A stretch of 37,077 nt of DNA from an uncultured Candidatus Saccharibacteria bacterium (GCA_964461185.1 CAYWTD010000001.1:1-37077), one strand, 5' to 3'; positions 16,034-24,446 are shown, counted from the stretch's first letter. Notes: generated from the letters alone by a model not told the origin. A program made the numbers and translations.

Positions 16034-16148
16034 TTTATCTGGGATACCATCTGCTTCATAAACAATTAAAGTGTGTTTATTTGGTTGTATTGGAGAAATT
16101 GTTTTAAAAATAAAAAAGCTTCATTCGGAACCGGCTCTTTATTTTAAT

Positions 16149-16177
16149 GCGCGCTTTCGTGGACGTTGTTGGAACTA
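16149..16177. repeat. 29-bp array repeat R1 (GCGCGCTTTCGTGGACGTTGTTGGAACTA, exact)
   Basis: Direct reading of the plus strand. It is one of 7 same-orientation copies. Confidence 0.95.
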
Positions 16178-16224
16178 GGATTTCAGAAACAATCACTACA
16201 TCATCTTAAAAAAGATGGTTCGAT

Positions 16225-16980
16225 CTAAAACGCAGGCATGTTCCACTGTTTCAAATCATCAATCGCTATCCTCTTATAAGAGAATTTCCCTGTACTTAAT
16301 GAATTCTTACAAACAGTAATCACTTTACCGGTCGCCATATCACTACCATCACCTTTTTGGGAAAATTTAGTACTGACCACTACCCAACCGTCTTCCATCT
16401 CCCCAGAAGATCTCTTGATTTTGACTATTAAGGGGGTTCTTTTCATAAGTTCATCCTCTAGATTTAAGGGATTTAAACGATCTTCTATATATTCTTGGGC
16501 TGCTAATTTTAATTCTGAAATATAATTTCTACCATGTCTTACCGCATCTGTAAAAGTCTTTTTTAATGGTTCAGGAATATTGTGTATCTTATCTTTAAAC
16601 TCATCAACAATCTGTCCAGTTACTTGCATATGCTCAACGATGCTTCTTAATCTAAGGACTATTTGCCGCCCGGCTTCATATCTATCTGGCTGTTCTATGG
16701 ATCCCCTATTTAAAGACTTTTCACGATATTCCGTGTAAAGAGCCAGATCATCTCCCGATAACACATCTTGTGCAACGGCATCAGAAATTTCAATACTAAT
16801 ATTTTGTAATTCATTGAAGAATTTTTGGCGAACACCATCACCCCAAGTGGCTTCTGAGTGGGTGTTTTTTATATTGCCGACCAATACGGACGATTCCTTA
16901 AAGTAGTCATCAAATGTCCCCACCATGATCTCTTCACCATTTTCAACTCTGGATTGATGCTTTGGATGTTCAATTCCCAT
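16225..16980 (-). CDS. hypothetical protein (cassette 1), no recognisable domain
   Basis: 251-aa ORF with ATG at 16980, downstream of a TTGACA-18-TAGAAT promoter. No signal peptide or TM. Confidence 0.6.
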   Translation of the reverse strand: MGIEHPKHQSRVENGEEIMVGTFDDYFKESSVLVGNIKNTHSEATWGDGVRQKFFNELQNISIEISDAVAQDVLSGDDLALYTEYREKSLNRGSIEQPDRYEAGRQIVLRLRSIVEHMQVTGQIVDEFKDKIHNIPEPLKKTFTDAVRHGRNYISELKLAAQEYIEDRLNPLNLEDELMKRTPLIVKIKRSSGEMEDGWVVVSTKFSQKGDGSDMATGKVITVCKNSLSTGKFSYKRIAIDDLKQWNMPAF

Positions 16981-17007
16981 GTTTTTTATCTAATTAATGT
17001 TACCATG

Positions 17008-17037
17008 ATTCTATCACGCACGTGGCACATCTGTCAA
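17008..17037 (-). promoter_or_regulatory. promoter of cassette 1 (TTGACA-18 nt-TGATAGAAT)
   Basis: Minus strand has TTGACA at 17037..17032. The extended -10, TGATAGAAT, ends at 17008, 27 nt before ATG 16980. Confidence 0.55.
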
Positions 17038-17061
17038 ACAAAAAATTTGTCCGTTGAAACC

Positions 17062-17092
17062 AAAAACACCCCTGTTTACAAAGGTGTTTTTA
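17062..17092 (-). terminator. hairpin terminator downstream of cassette 2 and repeat R2
   Basis: AAAACACC (17063-17070) pairs with GGTGTTTT (17083-17090), flanked by A and T runs. The shape is bidirectional. Confidence 0.5.
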
Positions 17093-17118
17093 TTGTTTGG
17101 AACATTTCTGTCCCGACT

Positions 17119-17147
17119 GCGCGCTTTCGTGGACGTTGTTGGAACTA
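17119..17147. repeat. 29-bp array repeat R2 (exact)
   Basis: Direct reading. Its terminal CTA (17145-17147) is the TAG stop of CDS 17145..17933. Confidence 0.95.
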
Positions 17148-17933
17148 TTGTCTTCCCGTGCAATGATATCCTTTGCCGCCTTCCTTGTTAAGAGTGGTTA
17201 AATCTAGAGTGACATGTTCGTCAATGCCTGCACCCAAGCCAAATCCACTATACTCAGAAAATTCCGGGCAGTTATCCTCTGTGGCCACAATGTCTGTGGG
17301 GCTCCAATAGCTAATGATATTATTCTTGATAGATAAAAATTTTGAATATGAATCATTAAAAATTTTTTTTCTTGATACAAGATCATAGACTCCAAGACCA
17401 CGTGGCGGTGGACCAGTACCAGAATCAGTTATCAAGAAATCGCCCTCAAGGGCCCTCACATATTCGGCGAATTTATTAGATAAAACAAAGTCGTTGTCAT
17501 TTTCAACATATTTGCAAGGATATTCTTGATCTATCTCTGTTTTATATTTGATCAAAATATTTGTACCCACACTGTCTACAAGATCTTCTCTAATTACAAA
17601 GTATTTATCATTGCTTACACAATCAGATTCGTATAGTCGATCATCTAGTCTGCATCTATTGAACGTTGTGTAATCGGGGGTAATATTTTGACCTCCATTT
17701 GCCATACACCATTCGAAAGCATCAATTTCTGTTTTATCAAGACGCTCTTCATCACTTATAAAAGCATTTTCCTCATGCTGATTAATATTATCTGGTTTTT
17801 GGGGAAGAAGTATACCGCCCGATCTGTTATCAAAAATGAAACCGTATTTTTTAGTTAAATAATATCCGCCGCTGATAATTAATAAACAGATAATAATAAT
17901 TAAAATTATCAGGGGCCCTTTGTTTATTTTCAT
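17145..17933 (-). CDS. hypothetical secreted or membrane-anchored protein (cassette 2)
   Basis: The track ORF begins at TTG 17939. The ATG at 17933 (MKINKGPLIILIIIICLLIISGGYYL...) lies 6 nt after TGGTAGAAT. It has an N-terminal signal anchor and several Cys residues. Confidence 0.65.
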   Translation of the reverse strand: MKINKGPLIILIIIICLLIISGGYYLTKKYGFIFDNRSGGILLPQKPDNINQHEENAFISDEERLDKTEIDAFEWCMANGGQNITPDYTTFNRCRLDDRLYESDCVSNDKYFVIREDLVDSVGTNILIKYKTEIDQEYPCKYVENDNDFVLSNKFAEYVRALEGDFLITDSGTGPPPRGLGVYDLVSRKKIFNDSYSKFLSIKNNIISYWSPTDIVATEDNCPEFSEYSGFGLGAGIDEHVTLDLTTLNKEGGKGYHCTGRQ

Positions 17934-17985
17934 ACACAAATTCTACCACCTTATGTTTAGTACATGAAGTTCATTACATTCATTT
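17934..17985 (-). promoter_or_regulatory. type-II cassette leader with extended -10 TGGTAGAAT (-10 at 17945..17940)
   Basis: Minus strand reads AAATGAATGTAATGAACTTCATGTACTAAACATAAGGTGGTAGAATTTGTGT-ATG. It is similar to the leader at 21321-21371. Confidence 0.55.
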
Positions 17986-18014
17986 GCGCGCTTTCGTGGG
18001 CGTTGTTGGAACTA
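17986..18014. repeat. 29-bp array repeat R3 (1 mismatch, A15G)
   Basis: GCGCGCTTTCGTGGGCGTTGTTGGAACTA. Confidence 0.95.
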
Positions 18015-18050
18015 GTTTTCAATAAATTGTATACTCATTCATAATATATT

Positions 18051-18677
18051 ATGACGAAAGCCAACGACTCTGTCGTAAAATACATAATTAAACACATAAA
18101 AAAACTAGATAGTAAAAAAAGGTTAGTAATAACATTGGATGGTATTAGCGGATGTGGGAAAACTTCAATTTCAAAGAGGGTGGCGGAGTTATTAAAGGAT
18201 GTAACAGTTTTACATGCAGATTATTTTATTTATCCATATTCAAAATTAGTAAAGAAAATAGAAAAATTTGAGAATAATTATAGTATTTTATATGAAAAAA
18301 ACTGGTATGAGACAAAAAATTTGTTAAGCGTGGTTAACTCTTTTTTAAAAGGTACAAAGAACTCATATATATACAAACCAAAAAGGTATACAAAGAACAA
18401 GGAAATAGAAATTAATCTCACTAATAGAATACTTATAGTAGAGGGGTGTTTTGTCTCTCATGATGATTTACTGGGACAAATTTCTGATAGTAAAATATTT
18501 CTATCACTACCAAAGGATAGTGTTGTCAGCAGAAGAAAAAAACGTCGAATTATTAGAGGTCTTGGGGAAAAAAGATCTCTACTATCTCCTCATTTCCATA
18601 AGGCATATAAACACTATACGGAAGTATACAAAATTAGCTCAAAATCTAACCTGCATATATTAATGAATCCAAAATAA
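18051..18677 (+). CDS. P-loop nucleoside/nucleotide kinase-like protein (cassette 3, inverted relative to the other cassettes)
   Basis: 208 aa with Walker A LDGISGCGKTSISKRV. The size and layout resemble uridine kinase/PRK-family small kinases. This is a family-level guess only. Confidence 0.55.
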   Translation: MTKANDSVVKYIIKHIKKLDSKKRLVITLDGISGCGKTSISKRVAELLKDVTVLHADYFIYPYSKLVKKIEKFENNYSILYEKNWYETKNLLSVVNSFLKGTKNSYIYKPKRYTKNKEIEINLTNRILIVEGCFVSHDDLLGQISDSKIFLSLPKDSVVSRRKKRRIIRGLGEKRSLLSPHFHKAYKHYTEVYKISSKSNLHILMNPK

Positions 18678-18719
18678 CAATCTGGTATAATCTGCATTAT
18701 TATTAGATAAATAAAAAAT

Positions 18720-18845
18720 ATGGAAGAAATAAAACTGCCTGTAGATAACGATTCCGCTGCAGCTGAAGAGATGAAGGAAGAGCCGACATCAATAGGTGAT
18801 CTCACAACAATCCAGCCAGAAGATAGAGAAGCTGAACAAGCCTAA
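18720..18845 (+). CDS. possible 41-aa highly acidic peptide
   Basis: Hand translation gives MEEIKLPVDNDSAAAEEMKEEPTSIGDLTTIQPEDREAEQA*. It is followed immediately by a strong terminator and is below the track cutoff. Confidence 0.3.
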   Translation: MEEIKLPVDNDSAAAEEMKEEPTSIGDLTTIQPEDREAEQA

Positions 18846-18852
18846 CCGTTAA

Positions 18853-18880
18853 AAAAGAACTCCAAAAGGAGTTCTTTTTA
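18853..18880 (+). terminator. rho-independent terminator ending cassette 3
   Basis: AAGAACTCC-AAAA-GGAGTTCTT followed by a T run (18855-18879). Confidence 0.7.
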
Positions 18881-18885
18881 AATTT

Positions 18886-18914
18886 GCGCGCTTTCGTAGA
18901 CGTTGTTGGAACTA
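18886..18914. repeat. 29-bp array repeat R4 (1 mismatch, G13A)
   Basis: GCGCGCTTTCGTAGACGTTGTTGGAACTA. Confidence 0.95.
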
Positions 18915-18930
18915 AAATTAATCCAGCAAT

Positions 18931-19809
18931 CTACAGGTCAACTAATTTATCAAGGTTTTTTATTTCATCAACGGTTATAAAGTGTATATCTGGATAGGCT
19001 GATTTCAAGGCATTAATGGCTGACTCATATTGGCGCGGAACTAATACGGCCAAAAGGTTTTCTAAACCAAAATCCCTTCCAGGACTTCCAATCAACATAA
19101 AACCTTCGTGTTTAGCAGAATAACCCAGACCAGAGAGTTGTTTTTCCTCTTCCACACCTTCGCCTTCGGGAATATAAAACGATCCCCAAAACTGGCCTCG
19201 AAAATCATTTTTCAATGCTACCTTTAGTCTTTTAAAATCATCCACAACGTCTGGTCCAAGTACCCCCTCCAAACCACGCGCTGGTAGATTTCTCGCAAAA
19301 TCTTTATCAAGTTGCTGTGCTTCACGAATAAAATCTTCGTGCTGAGTTCCTGGCAACACCTCTCCTTTCTTTGCCCTAAAATACATATTATCTATTACTT
19401 TCTGGAGATTGTCCGTGCCATTTTGAGATTTATTACTTTCATCAAAACCAAGACTCGTATTTGTTTCGCCGGCTTCTGGTGTTTGATCATTAAGTGCGGC
19501 TAACTTTTGCCTGACCTTATCTAGTTCTTTAACTCTGGAAATTTCTCCCTCTCTAATCAACACGGATTCAGACTCTCTCTTTCTCAAAAAATCTAAAATT
19601 TTTTGTCTTCTTTGTTTTTCCGCCTCGGTCTTTTCTTGATCAATATATATTTTTGGTACCCAAAGTTGTTCAACTATTTCAGAGGATAATCCATCATACT
19701 GAGCTGGAACACGAATCTCTTCTTCCTGTGATGGCAAATCATTTATGTTAGAACTGCCGTCTCCAGATAACTCAGTATCATCTATTGATAAATTTACCTC
19801 TTCTTTCAT
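18931..19809 (-). CDS. hypothetical protein (cassette 4), acidic N-terminal half
   Basis: 292-aa ORF with ATG at 19809, 9 nt after TGGTAGAAT. No recognisable motif. Confidence 0.6.
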   Translation of the reverse strand: MKEEVNLSIDDTELSGDGSSNINDLPSQEEEIRVPAQYDGLSSEIVEQLWVPKIYIDQEKTEAEKQRRQKILDFLRKRESESVLIREGEISRVKELDKVRQKLAALNDQTPEAGETNTSLGFDESNKSQNGTDNLQKVIDNMYFRAKKGEVLPGTQHEDFIREAQQLDKDFARNLPARGLEGVLGPDVVDDFKRLKVALKNDFRGQFWGSFYIPEGEGVEEEKQLSGLGYSAKHEGFMLIGSPGRDFGLENLLAVLVPRQYESAINALKSAYPDIHFITVDEIKNLDKLVDL

Positions 19810-19818
19810 TACAATATA

Positions 19819-19887
19819 ATTCTACCACAGTTCCAAATCCCTTCCTCCGTTGAGATTTCAGCGGCTTAAATTAAGCTTCAAATGTTT
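19819..19887 (-). promoter_or_regulatory. type-I cassette leader module, copy A (extended -10 TGGTAGAAT plus about 60 nt conserved upstream sequence)
   Basis: Plus strand reads ATTCTACCACAGTTCCAAATCCCTTCCTCCGTTGAGATTTCAGCGGCTTAAATTAAGCTTCAAATGTTT. It is near-identical to 21043-21111 and 23312-23380. Confidence 0.6.
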
Positions 19888-19916
19888 GCGCGCTTTCGTG
19901 GACGTTGTTGGAACTG
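19888..19916. repeat. 29-bp array repeat R5 (last base G instead of A)
   Basis: GCGCGCTTTCGTGGACGTTGTTGGAACTG. Confidence 0.95.
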
Positions 19917-19948
19917 AGTTGTGGAGAAATAAAACTTGTTTGTGATAA

Positions 19949-19983
19949 GAAAAAGGAGCTCACAGTCAAACCATGAGCTCCTC
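19949..19983 (-). terminator. rho-independent terminator ending cassette 5
   Basis: On the minus strand GGAGCTCA-11 nt-TGAGCTCC is followed by TTTTTC. The stems are at 19955-19962 and 19974-19981. Confidence 0.7.
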
Positions 19984-19995
19984 AAGAAATAATAA

Positions 19996-20295
19996 TTATG
20001 AACCAATCTTCTTAACCGTCATGGACGGATATTCACTACAATTAGGACATCCAAATCCAAATATGTATTGCTTACAACTAACAAAATCATCCACTGTTAG
20101 ATTCGTATCATCTCTGATATTCACCAACACAAGAACATCTGCTAGCTGCTTGCGATCAAGTTCTAAAATTACTCCACACGATGAGCAATACAAATACGCG
20201 ACTGAATCAGGATTATCAAATGGCTTGCTTGCCAAATCGGTTGGCAGGGTTTTACTTGAACCACATGTGCCAAAAAAATTTGATTGTATGTCCAT
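19996..20295 (-). CDS. hypothetical small protein with two CxxC pairs (zinc-ribbon-like), cassette 5 gene 2
   Basis: The start is set at ATG 20295 (MDIQSNFFG...), 6 nt after AGGAGG (20307..20302). Contains CSSCG...and...GCPNC. The plus-strand ORF 19973..20341 is taken as its shadow. Confidence 0.6.
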   Translation of the reverse strand: MDIQSNFFGTCGSSKTLPTDLASKPFDNPDSVAYLYCSSCGVILELDRKQLADVLVLVNIRDDTNLTVDDFVSCKQYIFGFGCPNCSEYPSMTVKKIGS

Positions 20296-20342
20296 GCCTT
20301 TCCTCCTTTCTGTTTTTCTTTCATTAGAATATAACATATAAA

Positions 20343-20990
20343 TTATCTGTCAAGCCTACCAATAATAACCTTTACTATTTTATCCGCCTCTTGCGCCACA
20401 AACAGATCGAAGGAAGTTTGGTCGGTTTTCTGGTCCAACTCCTCAGGAAAGATGGTCACAACATCTGCCTTAGAGGTTTTATTAGGATTTATACTACCAT
20501 CCATTGTTATGAGAATTGTTTTACCAAAAATTGATATATCAAAAAAGGCATCTACTCCATGATACCGATCAGTGGGCGTTTCGACAAAACCATCTTGAGT
20601 AGTTTTTAGCCTGAGATCAGAGCAAGCGGTATAGTACAACACAGAATCATCGTCGACACCAACTCTTGAATCTGGTAAACGTTCTTTTAGGATCTTCAAA
20701 ATCTTCTGACGAAGAAAATAAGCATATGGCTTATCTGGATTTGTTGGTTCAAATTTCCTACAACGCCTGACCAACTCAAAACTCTCTTCACGTTTTAGAT
20801 ATGGAGGGTTCCCTTCCCTTAGTCTCTTCATCGCCTCCACAAATTCAGACTCTAGTTCTGGATTAGACTTGAGTTTATCTTTTAGACTTCTTAGCTCATC
20901 AAGATATTTAGACTGATCAATTAAACCGAAATGTTCATACTCAGCCATTTTCCCGGATTCACCAAAGTGATTTCTAAATCCTCTATACAT
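20343..20990 (-). CDS. hypothetical protein, cassette 5 gene 1
   Basis: 215-aa ORF, about 50 nt downstream of the TGGTATAGT promoter in leader copy B. No recognisable motif. Confidence 0.55.
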   Translation of the reverse strand: MYRGFRNHFGESGKMAEYEHFGLIDQSKYLDELRSLKDKLKSNPELESEFVEAMKRLREGNPPYLKREESFELVRRCRKFEPTNPDKPYAYFLRQKILKILKERLPDSRVGVDDDSVLYYTACSDLRLKTTQDGFVETPTDRYHGVDAFFDISIFGKTILITMDGSINPNKTSKADVVTIFPEELDQKTDQTSFDLFVAQEADKIVKVIIGRLDR

Positions 20991-21042
20991 TGTTTTTTAT
21001 TTTTAATGTTGCTTTAATGTTTTGCAACTTTTTTATAATAAA

Positions 21043-21111
21043 ACTATACCACAGTTCCAAATCCCTTCCACCGTGGAAATTTCGGTAGCCTTAATTAAAC
21101 CTCAAATGTTT
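21043..21111 (-). promoter_or_regulatory. type-I cassette leader module, copy B (extended -10 TGGTATAGT)
   Basis: Plus strand reads ACTATACCACAGTTCCAAATCCCTTCCACCGTGGAAATTTCGGTAGCCTTAATTAAACCTCAAATGTTT. Confidence 0.6.
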
Positions 21112-21140
21112 GCGCGCTTTCGTGGAGGGGGTTGGGGCTA
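21112..21140. repeat. 29-bp array repeat R6 (degenerate; 5 substitutions, all to G)
   Basis: GCGCGCTTTCGTGGAGGGGGTTGGGGCTA. Its terminal CTA is the TAG stop of CDS 21138..21320. Confidence 0.85.
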
Positions 21141-21320
21141 CTTTTTACGTTTACGCACAAACAAGCAAATGATTAGTAGTATCCCGCCAATAATTATTAG
21201 GGGGTAACCAAACCAGATCGCGCCAAAGCCGTACCCGGTACTCATATTTGTTAGAGGACTCCAGAAATATGCAGAAACAATTAATCCAATAATTATTACT
21301 GCCAATGATATTTTTCTCAT
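21138..21320 (-). CDS. small 2-TM membrane protein (cassette 6)
   Basis: 60 aa: MRKISLAVIIIGLIVSAYFW...YPLIIIGGILLIICLFVRKRKK. The ATG lies 6 nt after TGGTAGGAT. The overlapping ORF 21151..21336 is not hydrophobic or coherent and is rejected. Confidence 0.5.
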   Translation of the reverse strand: MRKISLAVIIIGLIVSAYFWSPLTNMSTGYGFGAIWFGYPLIIIGGILLIICLFVRKRKK

Positions 21321-21371
21321 GCCATAATCCTACCACTCTGTGTTAAGTTCACAAAGTTCATTTGGTTCACT
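21321..21371 (-). promoter_or_regulatory. type-II cassette leader with extended -10 TGGTAGGAT
   Basis: Minus strand reads AGTGAACCAAATGAACTTTGTGAACTTAACACAGAGTGGTAGGATTATGGC-ATG. Confidence 0.5.
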
Positions 21372-21400
21372 GCGCGCTTTCGTGGACGTTGTTGGAACTA
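21372..21400. repeat. 29-bp array repeat R7 (exact)
   Basis: Direct reading. Confidence 0.95.
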
Positions 21401-21465
21401 GGGCGCTATAAAAAATAACAAGACAAATTGTTGTATCGTTCTAAGTGTTCCACCAGCTTTTATTT

Positions 21466-23304
21466 CTAGTAATCACACTTCCCGTTGCCCGTAGTGTCAT
21501 AACAATCTACCTCCCCATCATAATTTGTGTCCCACATATTTGGTCTGCCGTTTCCTGTGGTATCGAAACAGTCTGGTTGTTCATCTCCATTTGTATCCCA
21601 CATATTTGGTTTACCCCAATCAGTTTGGTCATTACTGTTCCATGCATCCATTTTCGCATCTCCATCCGTATCAAAATTATCACAATTCCCATTTGAGTTC
21701 GTATCGTAGCAAATTCCATCACCATATAACCACCAATTAATGTTTCTAGAACCAGAGGTTTTGCCCATGTTGCATTCACCATCACTTGTCGTGTCATAAC
21801 AATCTACCTCCCCATCATAATTTGTGTCCCACATATTTGGTCTGCCGTTTCCTGTAGTGTCAAAAGAATCTGCATTTCCGTCGTTATTATTGTCCCAACA
21901 ATCAATTTCTCCGTCGCTGTTACAATCCCAAGAACCAGAAACTTGTTCTCCTGGGTTTTCAAAATCTATTTTAATTCCGTAGATATCATATCCTCCGTAA
22001 TACCATTTGGGGGTTGGTTTATCTTTCAACCCAACCGGTCCGCCAGATAACAGATATTCCTTATAGAAAGTGAGATACAAGTCAAGAGGATTTAAATAAC
22101 CTTCGGGTGTAGAAAGAATTCTTACTTCAGGATTGGTCTGAATAATATTATCTTGCACAACAGTATCAACATCATAATTACTTGGTACAGAGTATAACGC
22201 CTCTTCTTCTGTCCATTTAACACCATCGGCAGAACTTCTTGTAATTATCGAATCAGTTTCTTTATCAAAATAGAAAGTTTTAAAAATTTTCTCTGAGGGA
22301 ACGTATTTTACGTCAAACTGGTTGAATACATTCGTTAATCCTGCAGCATCGGTCAGTCTGTTTGAATATGAATTTTCAAAATCTGTCGGGTCATTACTTT
22401 TAGAAACCATTTGATAGGGTATTTGTTCTTCAGCCGAACGATTGTATTTATAAATATTTCCTTCAGGGTCAGTCCAAACTAGAAAATAAGTCGTATCTAC
22501 GTAATACAAATATATATTTTCACCATCTGTCGTTACTCTTGGGATTCCCGCTCCATAAAGTTCTAAGTACGGATTTCCGTATCCTACAGAAGTAAAGTAA
22601 TTGTCATTTATATAATCGTGTCCAGCCAAACTTAATATATTTGACTCCAAAACTGGTTTATAAGAATATTCTGTAGGAGAATTCTTCCACCCCTCATCAG
22701 TTAATATTTTAAATGGACCTTCTGGATTTCTAGATCGAGCCACAAATATGGACAAAATCTTGCTTGGATCTGTATATGATTCAAAATATAAATAATAATA
22801 ACCTTCAAAATAGACAATTGCGTTTCCACATCCGCCTTGTGCCAAATCACTCTGACCATTTTCTCTTGAAGCTTCAATGATTATCTCTGCTGGAGACCAA
22901 TTTTCTCCATTATCGTCGGAATATTGATACCTTATTTTATCAGTTTCATATTCTGCGGTTTTTCTCCAGTCGGGTGCTGACCCAGAATCAAAAGGCTCTC
23001 CTGATGAACAATAGTATATGTGAATTCTTCCAGATTCATCTCGGATTGAGTTATGTAAATGTGCATAGTAACTTCCTCCTTCTCTAGCATCTATCCATTT
23101 TCCTTGATCTATAATTTCCCCTTCAGAAAAATTGATATTTTCATCTTCATTTGGGGAAATGTCCGCTTTTGCCAATAACGATAAATTGTTATTGAAAATA
23201 TTGCTTGAATAATTAAAAGTGAAATCGTTTTTATTTTCTTTGGCAATAAAAAATATTGCAACAAAAACAACTGATATAAATATCGGTAAAATGTATTTTT
23301 TCAT
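21466..23304 (-). CDS. secreted protein: Asp-box/beta-propeller-like N-terminal domain plus C-terminal Asp-rich calcium-binding-type repeats (cassette 7)
   Basis: 612 aa. Signal peptide MKKYILPIFISVVFVAIFFIA. SDDNGENWS matches the Asp-box pattern SxDxGxxW. The C-terminus carries repeated DTNxDGxxDCxDTT units (TTGNGRPNMWDTNYDGEVDCYDTT twice). Confidence 0.7.
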   Translation of the reverse strand: MKKYILPIFISVVFVAIFFIAKENKNDFTFNYSSNIFNNNLSLLAKADISPNEDENINFSEGEIIDQGKWIDAREGGSYYAHLHNSIRDESGRIHIYYCSSGEPFDSGSAPDWRKTAEYETDKIRYQYSDDNGENWSPAEIIIEASRENGQSDLAQGGCGNAIVYFEGYYYLYFESYTDPSKILSIFVARSRNPEGPFKILTDEGWKNSPTEYSYKPVLESNILSLAGHDYINDNYFTSVGYGNPYLELYGAGIPRVTTDGENIYLYYVDTTYFLVWTDPEGNIYKYNRSAEEQIPYQMVSKSNDPTDFENSYSNRLTDAAGLTNVFNQFDVKYVPSEKIFKTFYFDKETDSIITRSSADGVKWTEEEALYSVPSNYDVDTVVQDNIIQTNPEVRILSTPEGYLNPLDLYLTFYKEYLLSGGPVGLKDKPTPKWYYGGYDIYGIKIDFENPGEQVSGSWDCNSDGEIDCWDNNNDGNADSFDTTGNGRPNMWDTNYDGEVDCYDTTSDGECNMGKTSGSRNINWWLYGDGICYDTNSNGNCDNFDTDGDAKMDAWNSNDQTDWGKPNMWDTNGDEQPDCFDTTGNGRPNMWDTNYDGEVDCYDTTGNGKCDY

Positions 23305-23311
23305 ATACCAA

Positions 23312-23380
23312 ATTCTACCACAGTTCCAAATCCATTCCTCCGTCGGAATTTCGGTGGCTTTAATTAAGCTTCAAATGTTT
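23312..23380 (-). promoter_or_regulatory. type-I cassette leader module, copy C, abutting the 3' end of tRNA-Asp
   Basis: Plus strand reads ATTCTACCACAGTTCCAAATCCATTCCTCCGTCGGAATTTCGGTGGCTTTAATTAAGCTTCAAATGTTT, followed by GCGCG, which is the tRNA 3' end. Confidence 0.6.
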
Positions 23381-23381
23381 G

Positions 23382-23455
23382 CGCGAGTGATGGGACTTGA
23401 ACCCACGACCTTCCGCGTGACAGGCGGACGCTCTAACCAGCTGAGCTACACCCGC
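23382..23455 (-). tRNA. tRNA-Asp (anticodon GUC), no encoded CCA
   Basis: Minus strand reads GCGGGTG-TA-GCTC-AGCTGGTTA-GAGC-G-TCCGC-CTGTCAC-GCGGA-AGGTC-GTGGG-TTCAAGT-CCCAT-CACTCGC-G. Confidence 0.9.
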
Positions 23456-23541: not shown

Positions 23542-23763
23542 TCACCAGACATTTTGTCCTGGCGGTTTGCAACGGTTGATGCCTTTAAAGAATTTCTTCT
23601 TTTCAGAATTTCTGAATTCCAGACGATGCCGTTCACAAAGATGATTCGGATCATTCGACGTCCTGCAGATGCAACAAAGCTCTCGCCCTTTTGCATCAAG
23701 TTGCAGAGTCAAATCACCCAAATCAAGTCCAAGGCTTCTCGTCATGTCCTTGGGCTTCATCAT
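23542..23763 (-). CDS. small Cys/His-motif protein, paralog 2 (73 aa)
   Basis: The start is set at ATG 23763..23761, which overlaps the upstream stop as TGATG. Sequence: MMKPKDM...ELCCICRTSNDPNHLCERHRLEF... The motif CxxC-x7-HxxCxxH-x3-F is shared with the upstream gene. Confidence 0.55.
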   Translation of the reverse strand: MMKPKDMTRSLGLDLGDLTLQLDAKGRELCCICRTSNDPNHLCERHRLEFRNSEKKKFFKGINRCKPPGQNVW

Positions 23764-24029
23764 CAGGCCTGCCGTTTCCGTTGCTCTTTCTCGAACGCCC
23801 GGCGGTGACCAGTGCAAAGGCCGTGAGTGGTATCGTCACCACAAGCGTAGCACGGACGATCACCGTAACCATCGTCATCCGATGCGCCCCGATCTTCCGC
23901 GACAACGGTCTTTTGATTATCCGGCAAGGGTTGAGTCTGACCCCGTTTTGCTGTATCAATACTCAATCCCCAAGGAGTGTTGATCATTGAGAACAAAGCT
24001 AGTTGGCCAGCAATATCTTTTTCCTTCAT
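23763..24029 (-). CDS. small Cys/His-motif protein, paralog 1 (88 aa)
   Basis: MKEKDIAG...RPCYACGDDTTHGLCTGHRRAFEKEQRKRQA*. An SD-like AGAGG lies 8 nt upstream and TGTGATATAAT further upstream. Several overlapping plus-strand ORFs are taken as GC-driven shadows. Confidence 0.55.
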   Translation of the reverse strand: MKEKDIAGQLALFSMINTPWGLSIDTAKRGQTQPLPDNQKTVVAEDRGASDDDGYGDRPCYACGDDTTHGLCTGHRRAFEKEQRKRQA

Positions 24030-24144
24030 TACAAACCTCTTTCTTTTTTAAATTTTTTAACGAACTCCTAACCTAATTAAATTATATCACAAGTTATGAA
24101 AAAATCAACTATTCTACACTTTCCCACTAAGATTTACTTTCTTG

Positions 24145-24218
24145 TCCCGGGGGGCGGAATTGAACCGTCGACCTTAGCTTTATGAGTGCTACGCTCTAAC
24201 CAACTGAGCTACCCCGGG
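24145..24218 (-). tRNA. tRNA with CAU anticodon (elongator Met, or Ile2 if lysidinylated)
   Basis: Minus strand reads CCCGGGG-TA-GCTC-AGTTGGTTA-GAGC-G-TAGCA-CTCATAA-AGCTA-AGGTC-GACGG-TTCAATT-CCGCC-CCCCGGG-A. There is one A.C mismatch in the T stem and one A.A at the base of the anticodon stem. Confidence 0.8.
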
Positions 24219-24362: not shown

Positions 24363-24433
24363 CGCGGGATGGAGGAGTAGTACCTCGAGAGGCTCATAAC
24401 CTCTAGGCCCCGGTGCAATTCCGGGTCCCGCAA
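24363..24433 (+). tRNA. initiator tRNA-fMet (anticodon CAU)
   Basis: CGCGGGA-TG-GAGG-AGTAGTA-CCTC-G-AGAGG-CTCATAA-CCTCT-AGGC-CCCGG-TGCAATT-CCGGG-TCCCGCA-A. It has the C1xA72 mismatch and the CGCGGG...CCCGCAA ends of bacterial initiators. Confidence 0.8.
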
Positions 24434-24446
24434 CAATTTTTAGTCT

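Follow-up and report, generated by a model that had tools for sequence, protein, structure and literature searches.

A putative tRNA-Asp-anchored array of mobile gene cassettes in a Candidatus Saccharibacteria genome

The stretch of DNA analysed here, a window of 37,077 nucleotides (nt) from an uncultured Candidatus Saccharibacteria bacterium (GCA_964461185.1, CAYWTD010000001.1:1-37077), carries next to an intact tRNA-Asp gene a series of co-oriented copies of a 28-bp repeat that separate short, mutually dissimilar genes. It is reasonably probable that the region 16149-23455 represents a chromosomal array in which mobile gene cassettes were lined up behind the 3' end of tRNA-Asp, its anchor, by site-specific recombination, with the recombinase acting in trans; this reading draws on the array itself, on its conservation and position across lineages, on flanking arms that are shared across a CGCGC junction, on differences in cassette content between strains, and on one shared cassette that is bounded by CGCGC. 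The array looks like an integron-like, tRNA-anchored way of collecting accessory genes that has not been described previously; in the searchable literature, no paper was found with the repeat sequence or with a description of such arrays. To our knowledge, members of the Candidate Phyla Radiation (CPR, or Patescibacteria) have tiny genomes with few recognised mobile elements, and little is understood of how they acquire such genes.

On the gene strand the repeat reads AGTTCCAACAACGTCCACGAAAGCGCGC; its seven co-oriented copies begin at positions 16149, 17119, 17986, 18886, 19888, 21112, and 21372, against zero copies expected by chance. The original prediction, made from the window alone, had described a "29-mer" behind two internal copies of the tRNA flank; a repeat is indeed found there, but it is 28 bp long, it occurs seven times and not twice, and the array starts at 16149, past the left coordinate first given, and extends to 23385. 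Together, the seven repeats and the tRNA end delimit eight units of 0.26-2 kb that contain one gene apiece, or two genes in one unit. The cassette genes resemble neither each other nor, for the most part, any family in Pfam, PADLOC, or NCBIfam; PADLOC and NCBIfam assigned no defence or named function to the window cassette genes except for a kinase-like P-loop protein. The repeat usually lies 0-25 nt from a stop codon and just ahead of a terminator hairpin, with the exception of cassette 3, where the terminator precedes the repeat; behind each repeat of the window follows a terminator hairpin, an extended -10 promoter of the TGGTAGAAT type, or both. These arms fall into families: the A-type, which is a 69-nt module, the B-type at two junctions, and a terminator-type at three. 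One gene (18051-18677, plus strand) is inverted; its flanking repeats nonetheless keep their orientation. The features are listed here from the tRNA gene outward; related records are cited by L numbers and individual runs by X numbers.

23381-23455, minus strand: intact tRNA-Asp(GTC) gene, found by ARAGORN; Rfam (71.3 bits) places it at 23382-23455
23312-23380, minus strand: module A1, the 69-nt arm directly after tRNA-Asp, ending in the promoter box GGATTTGGAACTGTGGTAGAAT, an extended -10
21466-23304, minus strand: cassette 1 gene, 612 aa, with a signal peptide, a weak BNR match, and internal repeats that look Ca-binding
21372-21399, minus strand: repeat R1, an exact copy of the 28-mer
21327-21371, minus strand: B-type arm (AGTGAACCAAATGAACTTTGTGAACTTAACACAGAGTGGTAGGAT), promoter of cassette 2; the arm family is also found in L005 and L032
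21138-21320, minus strand: cassette 2 gene, a 60-aa membrane protein whose stop codon overlaps R2
21112-21139, minus strand: repeat R2, degenerate, with five mismatches (AGCCCCAACCCCCTCCACGAAAGCGCGC)
21043-21111, minus strand: module A2, by alignment
19996-20990, minus strand: cassette 3, with two genes of 215 aa (20343-20990) and 113 aa (19996-20337); a terminator hairpin is next, at 19953-19983
19888-19915, minus strand: repeat R3, exact
19819-19887, minus strand: module A3, by alignment
18931-19809, minus strand: cassette 4 gene, 292 aa; in sister strains (L021 and L022, runs X2 and X4), no other cassette gene lies between it and tRNA-Asp
18886-18913, minus strand: repeat R4, one mismatch, followed by a terminator hairpin
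18051-18677, plus strand: cassette 5 gene, for a P-loop protein of 208 aa that resembles uridine kinases; the single gene that runs opposite to the repeats
17986-18013, minus strand: repeat R5, one mismatch, followed by a B-type arm (17940-17985)
17145-17939, minus strand: cassette 6 gene, about 262 aa, whose stop codon overlaps R6
17119-17146, minus strand: repeat R6, exact; behind it lie a terminator hairpin and a promoter of the form TTGACA-18-TAGAAT (17008-17037)
16225-16980, minus strand: cassette 7 gene, 251 aa, no family match
16149-16176, minus strand: repeat R7, exact, the distal end of the array
16100-16148, minus strand: distal arm ATTAAAATAAAGAGCCGG..., with a degenerate terminator; also found after repeats in L017 and L025, and directly after tRNA-Asp in another organism (runs X1 and X7)

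Within the 612-aa gene of cassette 1, a 110-nt direct repeat (21491-21600 and 21788-21897, 85% identity) encodes repeated Asp/Gly-rich motifs of the type DTNYDGEVDCYDTTGNG, which have a Ca-binding appearance.

The 69 nt next to tRNA-Asp (23312-23380) recur, as had been predicted, at two internal sites; without gaps, they are identical to the copy at 19819-19887 in 62/69 positions and to the copy at 21043-21111 in 59/69, and the two internal copies are identical to each other in 57/69 positions (overall range 83-90%). A 22-nt stretch of the module occurs three times in the window, compared to zero expected occurrences in shuffles. On the plus strand, all three copies share ...TCAAATGTTTGCGCG, after which the tRNA copy continues with AGTGATGGG (tRNA nt 70-73 and one downstream base) and the internal copies with CTTTCGTGG; read on the gene strand, the junction is ...CATCACTCGCGC|AAACATTTGAAGC... 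in the tRNA copy and ...CCACGAAAGCGCGC|AAACATTTGA... in the internal copies. The alignment bears out the predicted break of homology within the acceptor end of the tRNA, at CGCGC (GCGCG on the plus strand, 23381-23385), which corresponds to tRNA nt 70-73 plus one more base. The GTCC block that the repeat was said to share with the tRNA 3' end is also present, and in register; the tRNA-Asp end and the 28-mer have the layout GTCC-N7-CGCGC in common. Since the last bases of tRNA-Asp (GCGCG, 23381-23385) form a core that is common to every repeat, tRNA-Asp is proposed as the chromosomal attachment site. The genes behind the three module copies have no similarity to one another, i.e., they are not paralogues.

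Relatives of the array were found with a degenerate repeat pattern in metagenome-assembled genomes (MAGs) and metagenome contigs, where relaxed scans then showed arrays as well; ten further lineages were fetched via a conserved 339-aa protein encoded upstream of the tRNAs. Three GC-rich matches to the pattern were discarded as chance. The repeat is present in records titled Parcubacteria, Patescibacteria, Paceibacterota, and Saccharibacteria, and in metagenome contigs; none was detected in the viral contigs, plasmids, and phages that were searched. The gene order GatC-GatA-339aa-tRNAMet-tRNAMet-(small ORF)-tRNA-Asp (ORF, open reading frame) is conserved, and in most of the fetched lineages the array follows after tRNA-Asp. 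The number of repeats downstream of tRNA-Asp is at least 11 in L032, at least seven in L025, at least four in L027, three in L003 and L005, two in L040, one in L001 and L038, and zero in L024 and L039. A comparison of 37 junctions gives at least 90% conservation for positions 1-10, 14-18, and 24-28 of the repeat, and positions 19-23 are lineage-dependent; the base after CGCGC is A in 32 of the 37. The cargo of the arrays includes GNATs, GrpB, a serine hydrolase, Fic, HIT, an amidase, VanY, and toxin-antitoxin pairs of the RelBE/CopG type, and is typical accessory material. Homologues of the 292-aa cassette protein in other genomes were never located beside repeats, an uninformative result.

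The original prediction had read the three module copies as the same arm joined to two different partners across a short core, and the relatives sustain this point. The right-hand arms belong to a few families that start immediately after CGCGC, and a family that follows tRNA-Asp in one genome follows the 28-mer in another. In at least four lineages (the window, L032, and, with arm types of their own, L038 and L025), the tRNA-Asp flank is homologous to flanks after internal repeats; for example, the tRNA flank ATTAGCGAACGGTTCGCAAAAGACA...GGTGTTTTTTTG...GGTATAAT of L032 is homologous to the flanks behind most of its internal repeats. This T-type arm, as it stands behind the L032 tRNA, agrees in 50/52 positions with a repeat flank of L019, a record titled Saccharibacteria, and the ATTAAAATAAAG arm lies behind the last repeat of the window and behind repeats in L017 and L025, and directly behind tRNA-Asp in another organism (runs X1 and X7). 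An apparent "empty site" joint of 16147 to 23380 (run X1), which seemed to represent excision of the whole array, was rejected as a 30-nt match to the contig of another organism and is retained only as an example of arm sharing.

The joining of one arm to two partners is further supported by entire cassettes. A Fic cassette is shared by L025 and L032 with 83% DNA identity over 1051 nt, compared to 64% protein identity for GatA and 43% for the 339-aa protein; its neighbours differ between the two records, and the homology ends exactly at the CGCGC of the repeat. The L032 cassette that adjoins Fic has a homologue at the far end of the L025 array. In the sister-strain contigs L021 and L022, window cassettes 1-3 are missing; of the cassettes that bear a gene, the 292-aa one comes first after tRNA-Asp, with only a gene-less insert of about 185 nt in between. 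The 292-aa cassette (18931-19842, runs X2 and X4) is 100% identical in these strains whereas the flanking core genes differ by about 2-4%, which suggests that cassettes were recently exchanged between co-occurring strains.

The GC-rich insert of about 185 nt directly after the tRNA in L022, L025, and L027 ends in an exact 18-nt copy of the host's tRNA 3' end; it demonstrably marks the tRNA-Asp end as a recombination hot spot also in the classical sense. Inserts of this "S" kind (L022:56-258; L025:12362-12579; L027:12111-12291; also L003:4738-4955, and L011) were observed behind tRNA-Asp or behind the 28-mer; they contain a terminator and the conserved blocks GAAAGACGGAG and GAGTCGGGGTCGC, and the 3' end of the host tRNA-Asp recurs in them twice, inverted on the 5' side and as the exact 18-nt direct copy on the 3' side. 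They have no match in Rfam and could be mini integrative elements or an unknown small RNA.

The assembly of the array could be envisioned as follows. A cassette would consist of a 5' arm (terminator and/or extended -10 promoter), one or two accessory genes, and the 28-bp site, conserved and unstructured, of the form AGTTCCAACAAC-GTCCAC-N5-CGCGC. A putative recombinase, encoded elsewhere in the genome, would bring together the tRNA-Asp end (GGTTCRAGTCC-N7-CGCGC) and the 28-mer of a cassette in free and probably circular form; strand exchange would take place at or next to CGCGC|A, i.e., at the discriminator base and the following base, so that the tRNA stays intact. New cassettes would enter beside tRNA-Asp and push the older ones outward. 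The 69-nt module would then be the cassette-side arm of one widespread family, the A-type, and for this reason would be found behind the tRNA and two internal 28-mers alike.

Several observations weigh against this scheme. No known recombinase family was found in the window (Pfam, all ORFs of at least 100 aa; no Phage_integrase match) nor in any of about ten arrays searched with Pfam; about 60 cassettes contained no integrase or integrase fragment, and only an IS256-type transposase in L029 and L030. Among the assembled contigs, there was no circular cassette, no empty site from the same strain, and no excision joint, and none of the short repeat-bearing contigs was circular. By direct sequence reading, the 28-mer and the junction are without dyad symmetry, unlike typical core sites of tyrosine or serine recombinases. 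Finally, the promoter box, and not CGCGC, is where identity of the window to L022 drops from 100% to about 60%, the same arm module stands ahead of unrelated genes, and the repeat of the Fic cassette has a 3' part that matches the type of the local host. The first two of these last observations indicate a second kind of breakpoint, for example by homologous recombination or conversion between modules; all the observations together show that the modules also undergo homologous recombination or gene conversion with one another at this locus.

The serious rival, although on the whole an unlikely one, is that homologous recombination between conserved intergenic modules does all the work: no dedicated recombinase would exist, DNA would arrive by natural transformation and be incorporated by homologous recombination that depends on RecA, or by gene conversion, with the intergenic blocks (28-mer, terminator, and promoter modules) as short homology anchors, and the similarity of the tRNA flank to the internal flanks would reflect concerted evolution of the modules. 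The breakpoint in the conserved promoter box, the lineage-typed 3' part of the repeat even in a horizontally shared Fic cassette, and the lack of a recombinase in the window and about ten arrays all fit this explanation, as do modules that are homogeneous within a genome and different between genomes, and the pilin and prepilin-peptidase genes that flank the locus. Yet the tRNA end and the 28-mer have nothing but CGCGC and GTCC in common; therefore, homologous recombination cannot create the paired tRNA|arm and 28-mer|arm junctions, which were observed repeatedly, in at least four lineages, and in which homology begins exactly at CGCGC. It also leaves unexplained why the 28-mer is at least 90% conserved over records titled as different phyla when its neighbours are not, and why the array is constantly positioned at tRNA-Asp.

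Quite improbable is a true integron-like mechanism that acts on folded single strands. Here, the site would be a unit of about 95 nt, made up of the 28-mer and its arm and closed by the inverted pair AGTTCCAA/TTGGAACT, with the crossover at the right-hand box near the promoter and with tRNA-Asp and its arm in the role of attI. The 8-bp inverted pair exists where the original prediction had placed it, but in the 21112 unit its partner has changed to TTGGGGCT. The pair is kept in seven A-type units from three lineages; the unit size of 74-97 nt and the variable centre resemble attC; the right-hand box is where the identity of the window to L022 is lost; and unrelated genes follow the same module. 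The predicted folded att-type unit of about 95 nt could not be upheld, however: DNA folds of units of about 95-100 nt were no better than shuffles on either strand (z from -1.9 to +1.5), and an alignment fold of the seven A-type units yielded only an outer 9-bp stem with no compensatory pairs. The box TTGGAACT, allowing at most one mismatch, was found downstream of only 4/22 repeats vs. about 13% of control windows; as a general partner of the repeat it was rejected, since it is absent at most junctions and the T-type and ATTAAAATAAAG arms lack it altogether. No IntI-like gene was found, and the cassettes have their own promoters. An attC-like hairpin is not supported.

Still more doubtful is a role of the 28-mer in RNA or transcription, as an imitation of the 3' end of tRNA-Asp that acts, for example, as a 3'-untranslated-region signal for processing or stability; the genes behind it would vary for unrelated reasons. 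The usual location of the repeat between stop codon and terminator hairpin would suit such an element, and so would the GTCC-N7-CGCGC layout in common with the tRNA end. Against this, repeat R5 keeps its orientation beside the inverted gene 18051-18677 (plus strand), the terminator of cassette 3 lies ahead of the repeat, the 28-mer by itself has no predicted structure, and neither the linkage to tRNA-Asp nor the shared, repeat-bounded Fic cassette is explained. Ordinary local duplication, in which a promoter conserved downstream of tRNA-Asp would have been carried along when genes were duplicated, can practically be dismissed: the module does contain a promoter-like extended -10, and its left part resembles the tRNA flank of L024, the closest array-less relative, but this resemblance amounts to a partial similarity over about 25 nt without the promoter box and not to the same 69 nt, the outcome that would have told against the original prediction; the three genes behind the module are dissimilar, the 28-mer always precedes the copies, and the same architecture occurs with other arm types in unrelated lineages.

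If the array is read as a product of site-specific recombination at tRNA-Asp, it invites comparison with integrons, in particular sedentary chromosomal integrons and the integrase-less clusters of attC sites known as CALINs. In both, compact cassettes of one or two genes are co-oriented, and each ends in a repeat resembling a recombination site; hybrid junctions over a very short core, a feature of integrons, were looked for and found in the array; and the cargo of GNATs, toxin-antitoxin systems, and orphan genes is similar, with cassette order and content varying between relatives. attC sites are imperfect inverted repeats (R''/L''...L'/R') that fold as a hairpin. The differences are substantial: the array has no intI (no Phage_integrase match by Pfam among the window ORFs of at least 100 aa and in the arrays of L023-L040); it is anchored on the end of a tRNA gene whereas an integron is anchored on attI next to intI; its repeat is a sequence-conserved, unstructured 28-mer in contrast to the structure-conserved hairpin of 57-141 nt in attC; and its cassettes bring promoters and often terminators, whereas integron cassettes are mostly promoterless and depend on the common promoter Pc. 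Without intI and attC structure, and with cassettes that have their own promoters, the array is by definition not an integron.

Islands that target tRNA genes provide a second comparison. The tycheposons of Prochlorococcus, where successive arrivals push older elements into the island (bioRxiv 10.1101/2020.12.28.424599), and cis-mobilisable integrase-less elements share with the array the integration at tRNA genes, repeats scattered over the island, and some units without an integrase; like such islands, the array lies immediately 3' of an intact tRNA gene. Tycheposon islands are the nearest published parallel that was found. Yet island repeats are true partial tRNA copies whereas the 28-mer of the array matches the tRNA end at only 12/28 positions (our own count), and an exact copy of the tRNA 3' end is found only in the separate insert of about 185 nt (L022, L025, L027) and not in the 28-mer. 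Most islands carry a tyrosine recombinase and replication genes; the units of the array are minimal single genes, and no integrase was found. Because its repeats are not tRNA copies, integrases are missing, and the units are minimal, the array does not qualify as a classical tRNA island.

Chromosomal dif sites are located at the terminus; a dif-type site has 28 bp, with two partially palindromic 11-bp arms around a 6-bp spacer. Modules mobilised by Xer, such as the IMEX (integrative mobile elements exploiting Xer) at dif and the pdif modules of Acinetobacter plasmids, resemble the array insofar as a 28-bp site flanks discrete gene modules; the recombinase of Xer modules is encoded elsewhere by the host. 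By direct reading, however, the repeat of the array lacks a dif-like partial palindrome of 11-6-11; its sites are all direct and not alternating; and the locus does not coincide with a GC-skew switch, since cumulative GC skew is monotonic over the window. Mechanisms of the dif/Xer, IS200/IS605, and bridge-RNA (IS110) types were considered from general knowledge and set aside, as the sequence contains no dyad, no end hairpins, and no linked transposase.

A broader reading, offered tentatively and with slightly less than even confidence, would be that the CPR have evolved a gene-capture platform independently of integrons; the tRNA-Asp 3' end would serve as fixed entry and the 28-bp double-stranded tag as cassette site, self-contained cassettes would move between CPR lineages titled as different phyla, and the recombinase would be unlinked and possibly of an unrecognised family. 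A conserved, tRNA-anchored array of this kind would mark a hot spot where strain-specific genes are stored and exchanged, also between lineages titled as different phyla. The 28-mer would provide a simple sequence tag for mining the accessory gene pool of the CPR from metagenomes; together with the tRNA-Asp end, it would form a concrete substrate pair for finding the recombinase, which could be a new enzyme for site-specific DNA insertion.

Strains of one Parcubacteria population differ in an IS256-type transposase (Transposase_mut), which interrupts one small cassette in L029 (14339-15565) and in L030 but is absent in L032. Directly upstream of the 28-mer (L001:3398-3470), L001 and L010 have a tandem duplication of 36 nt that starts with AGTTC; it is not present in L009, and represents a polymorphism that abuts the 5' edge of the repeat. 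In the Saccharibacteria-titled MAG L019 (6690-6790; the same in L002 and L015), a degenerate 3' half of tRNA-Asp (CTGTCAC...GTTCGAGTCCCTTCGATCGCGC) lies in the cell-division gene cluster, between mraY and ftsW, and is followed by the promoter box, a frameshifted kinase-like gene, 28-mers, and a GNAT gene; this array is located away from an intact tRNA.

The genes of the window are nearly all encoded on the minus strand; outside the array, they have housekeeping functions (GatCAB, LigA, SecA, RF2, FtsEX, pilins, alanine racemase). The Rfam searches of the window and of related loci returned tRNAs only. Two divergent tRNA-Met(CAT) genes are located just upstream of tRNA-Asp, at 24144-24218 (minus strand) and 24363-24434 (plus strand); most of the fetched relatives have two tRNA-Met genes in the same position (one in L038 and L039), in divergent orientation only in the closer relatives L005, L024, L025, and L027. 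Between tRNA-Met and tRNA-Asp, the segment 23542-24029 (minus strand) is GC-rich (48% vs. about 35% elsewhere) and encodes a small Cys-rich protein with two CxxC...C..C/H motifs that has no family match in Pfam, NCBIfam, PADLOC, or Rfam. In the window, this gene is split into the overlapping frames 23763-24029 and 23542-23817; in L005, the ORF is intact with 167 aa, and among the relatives its length ranges from 53 to 167 aa.

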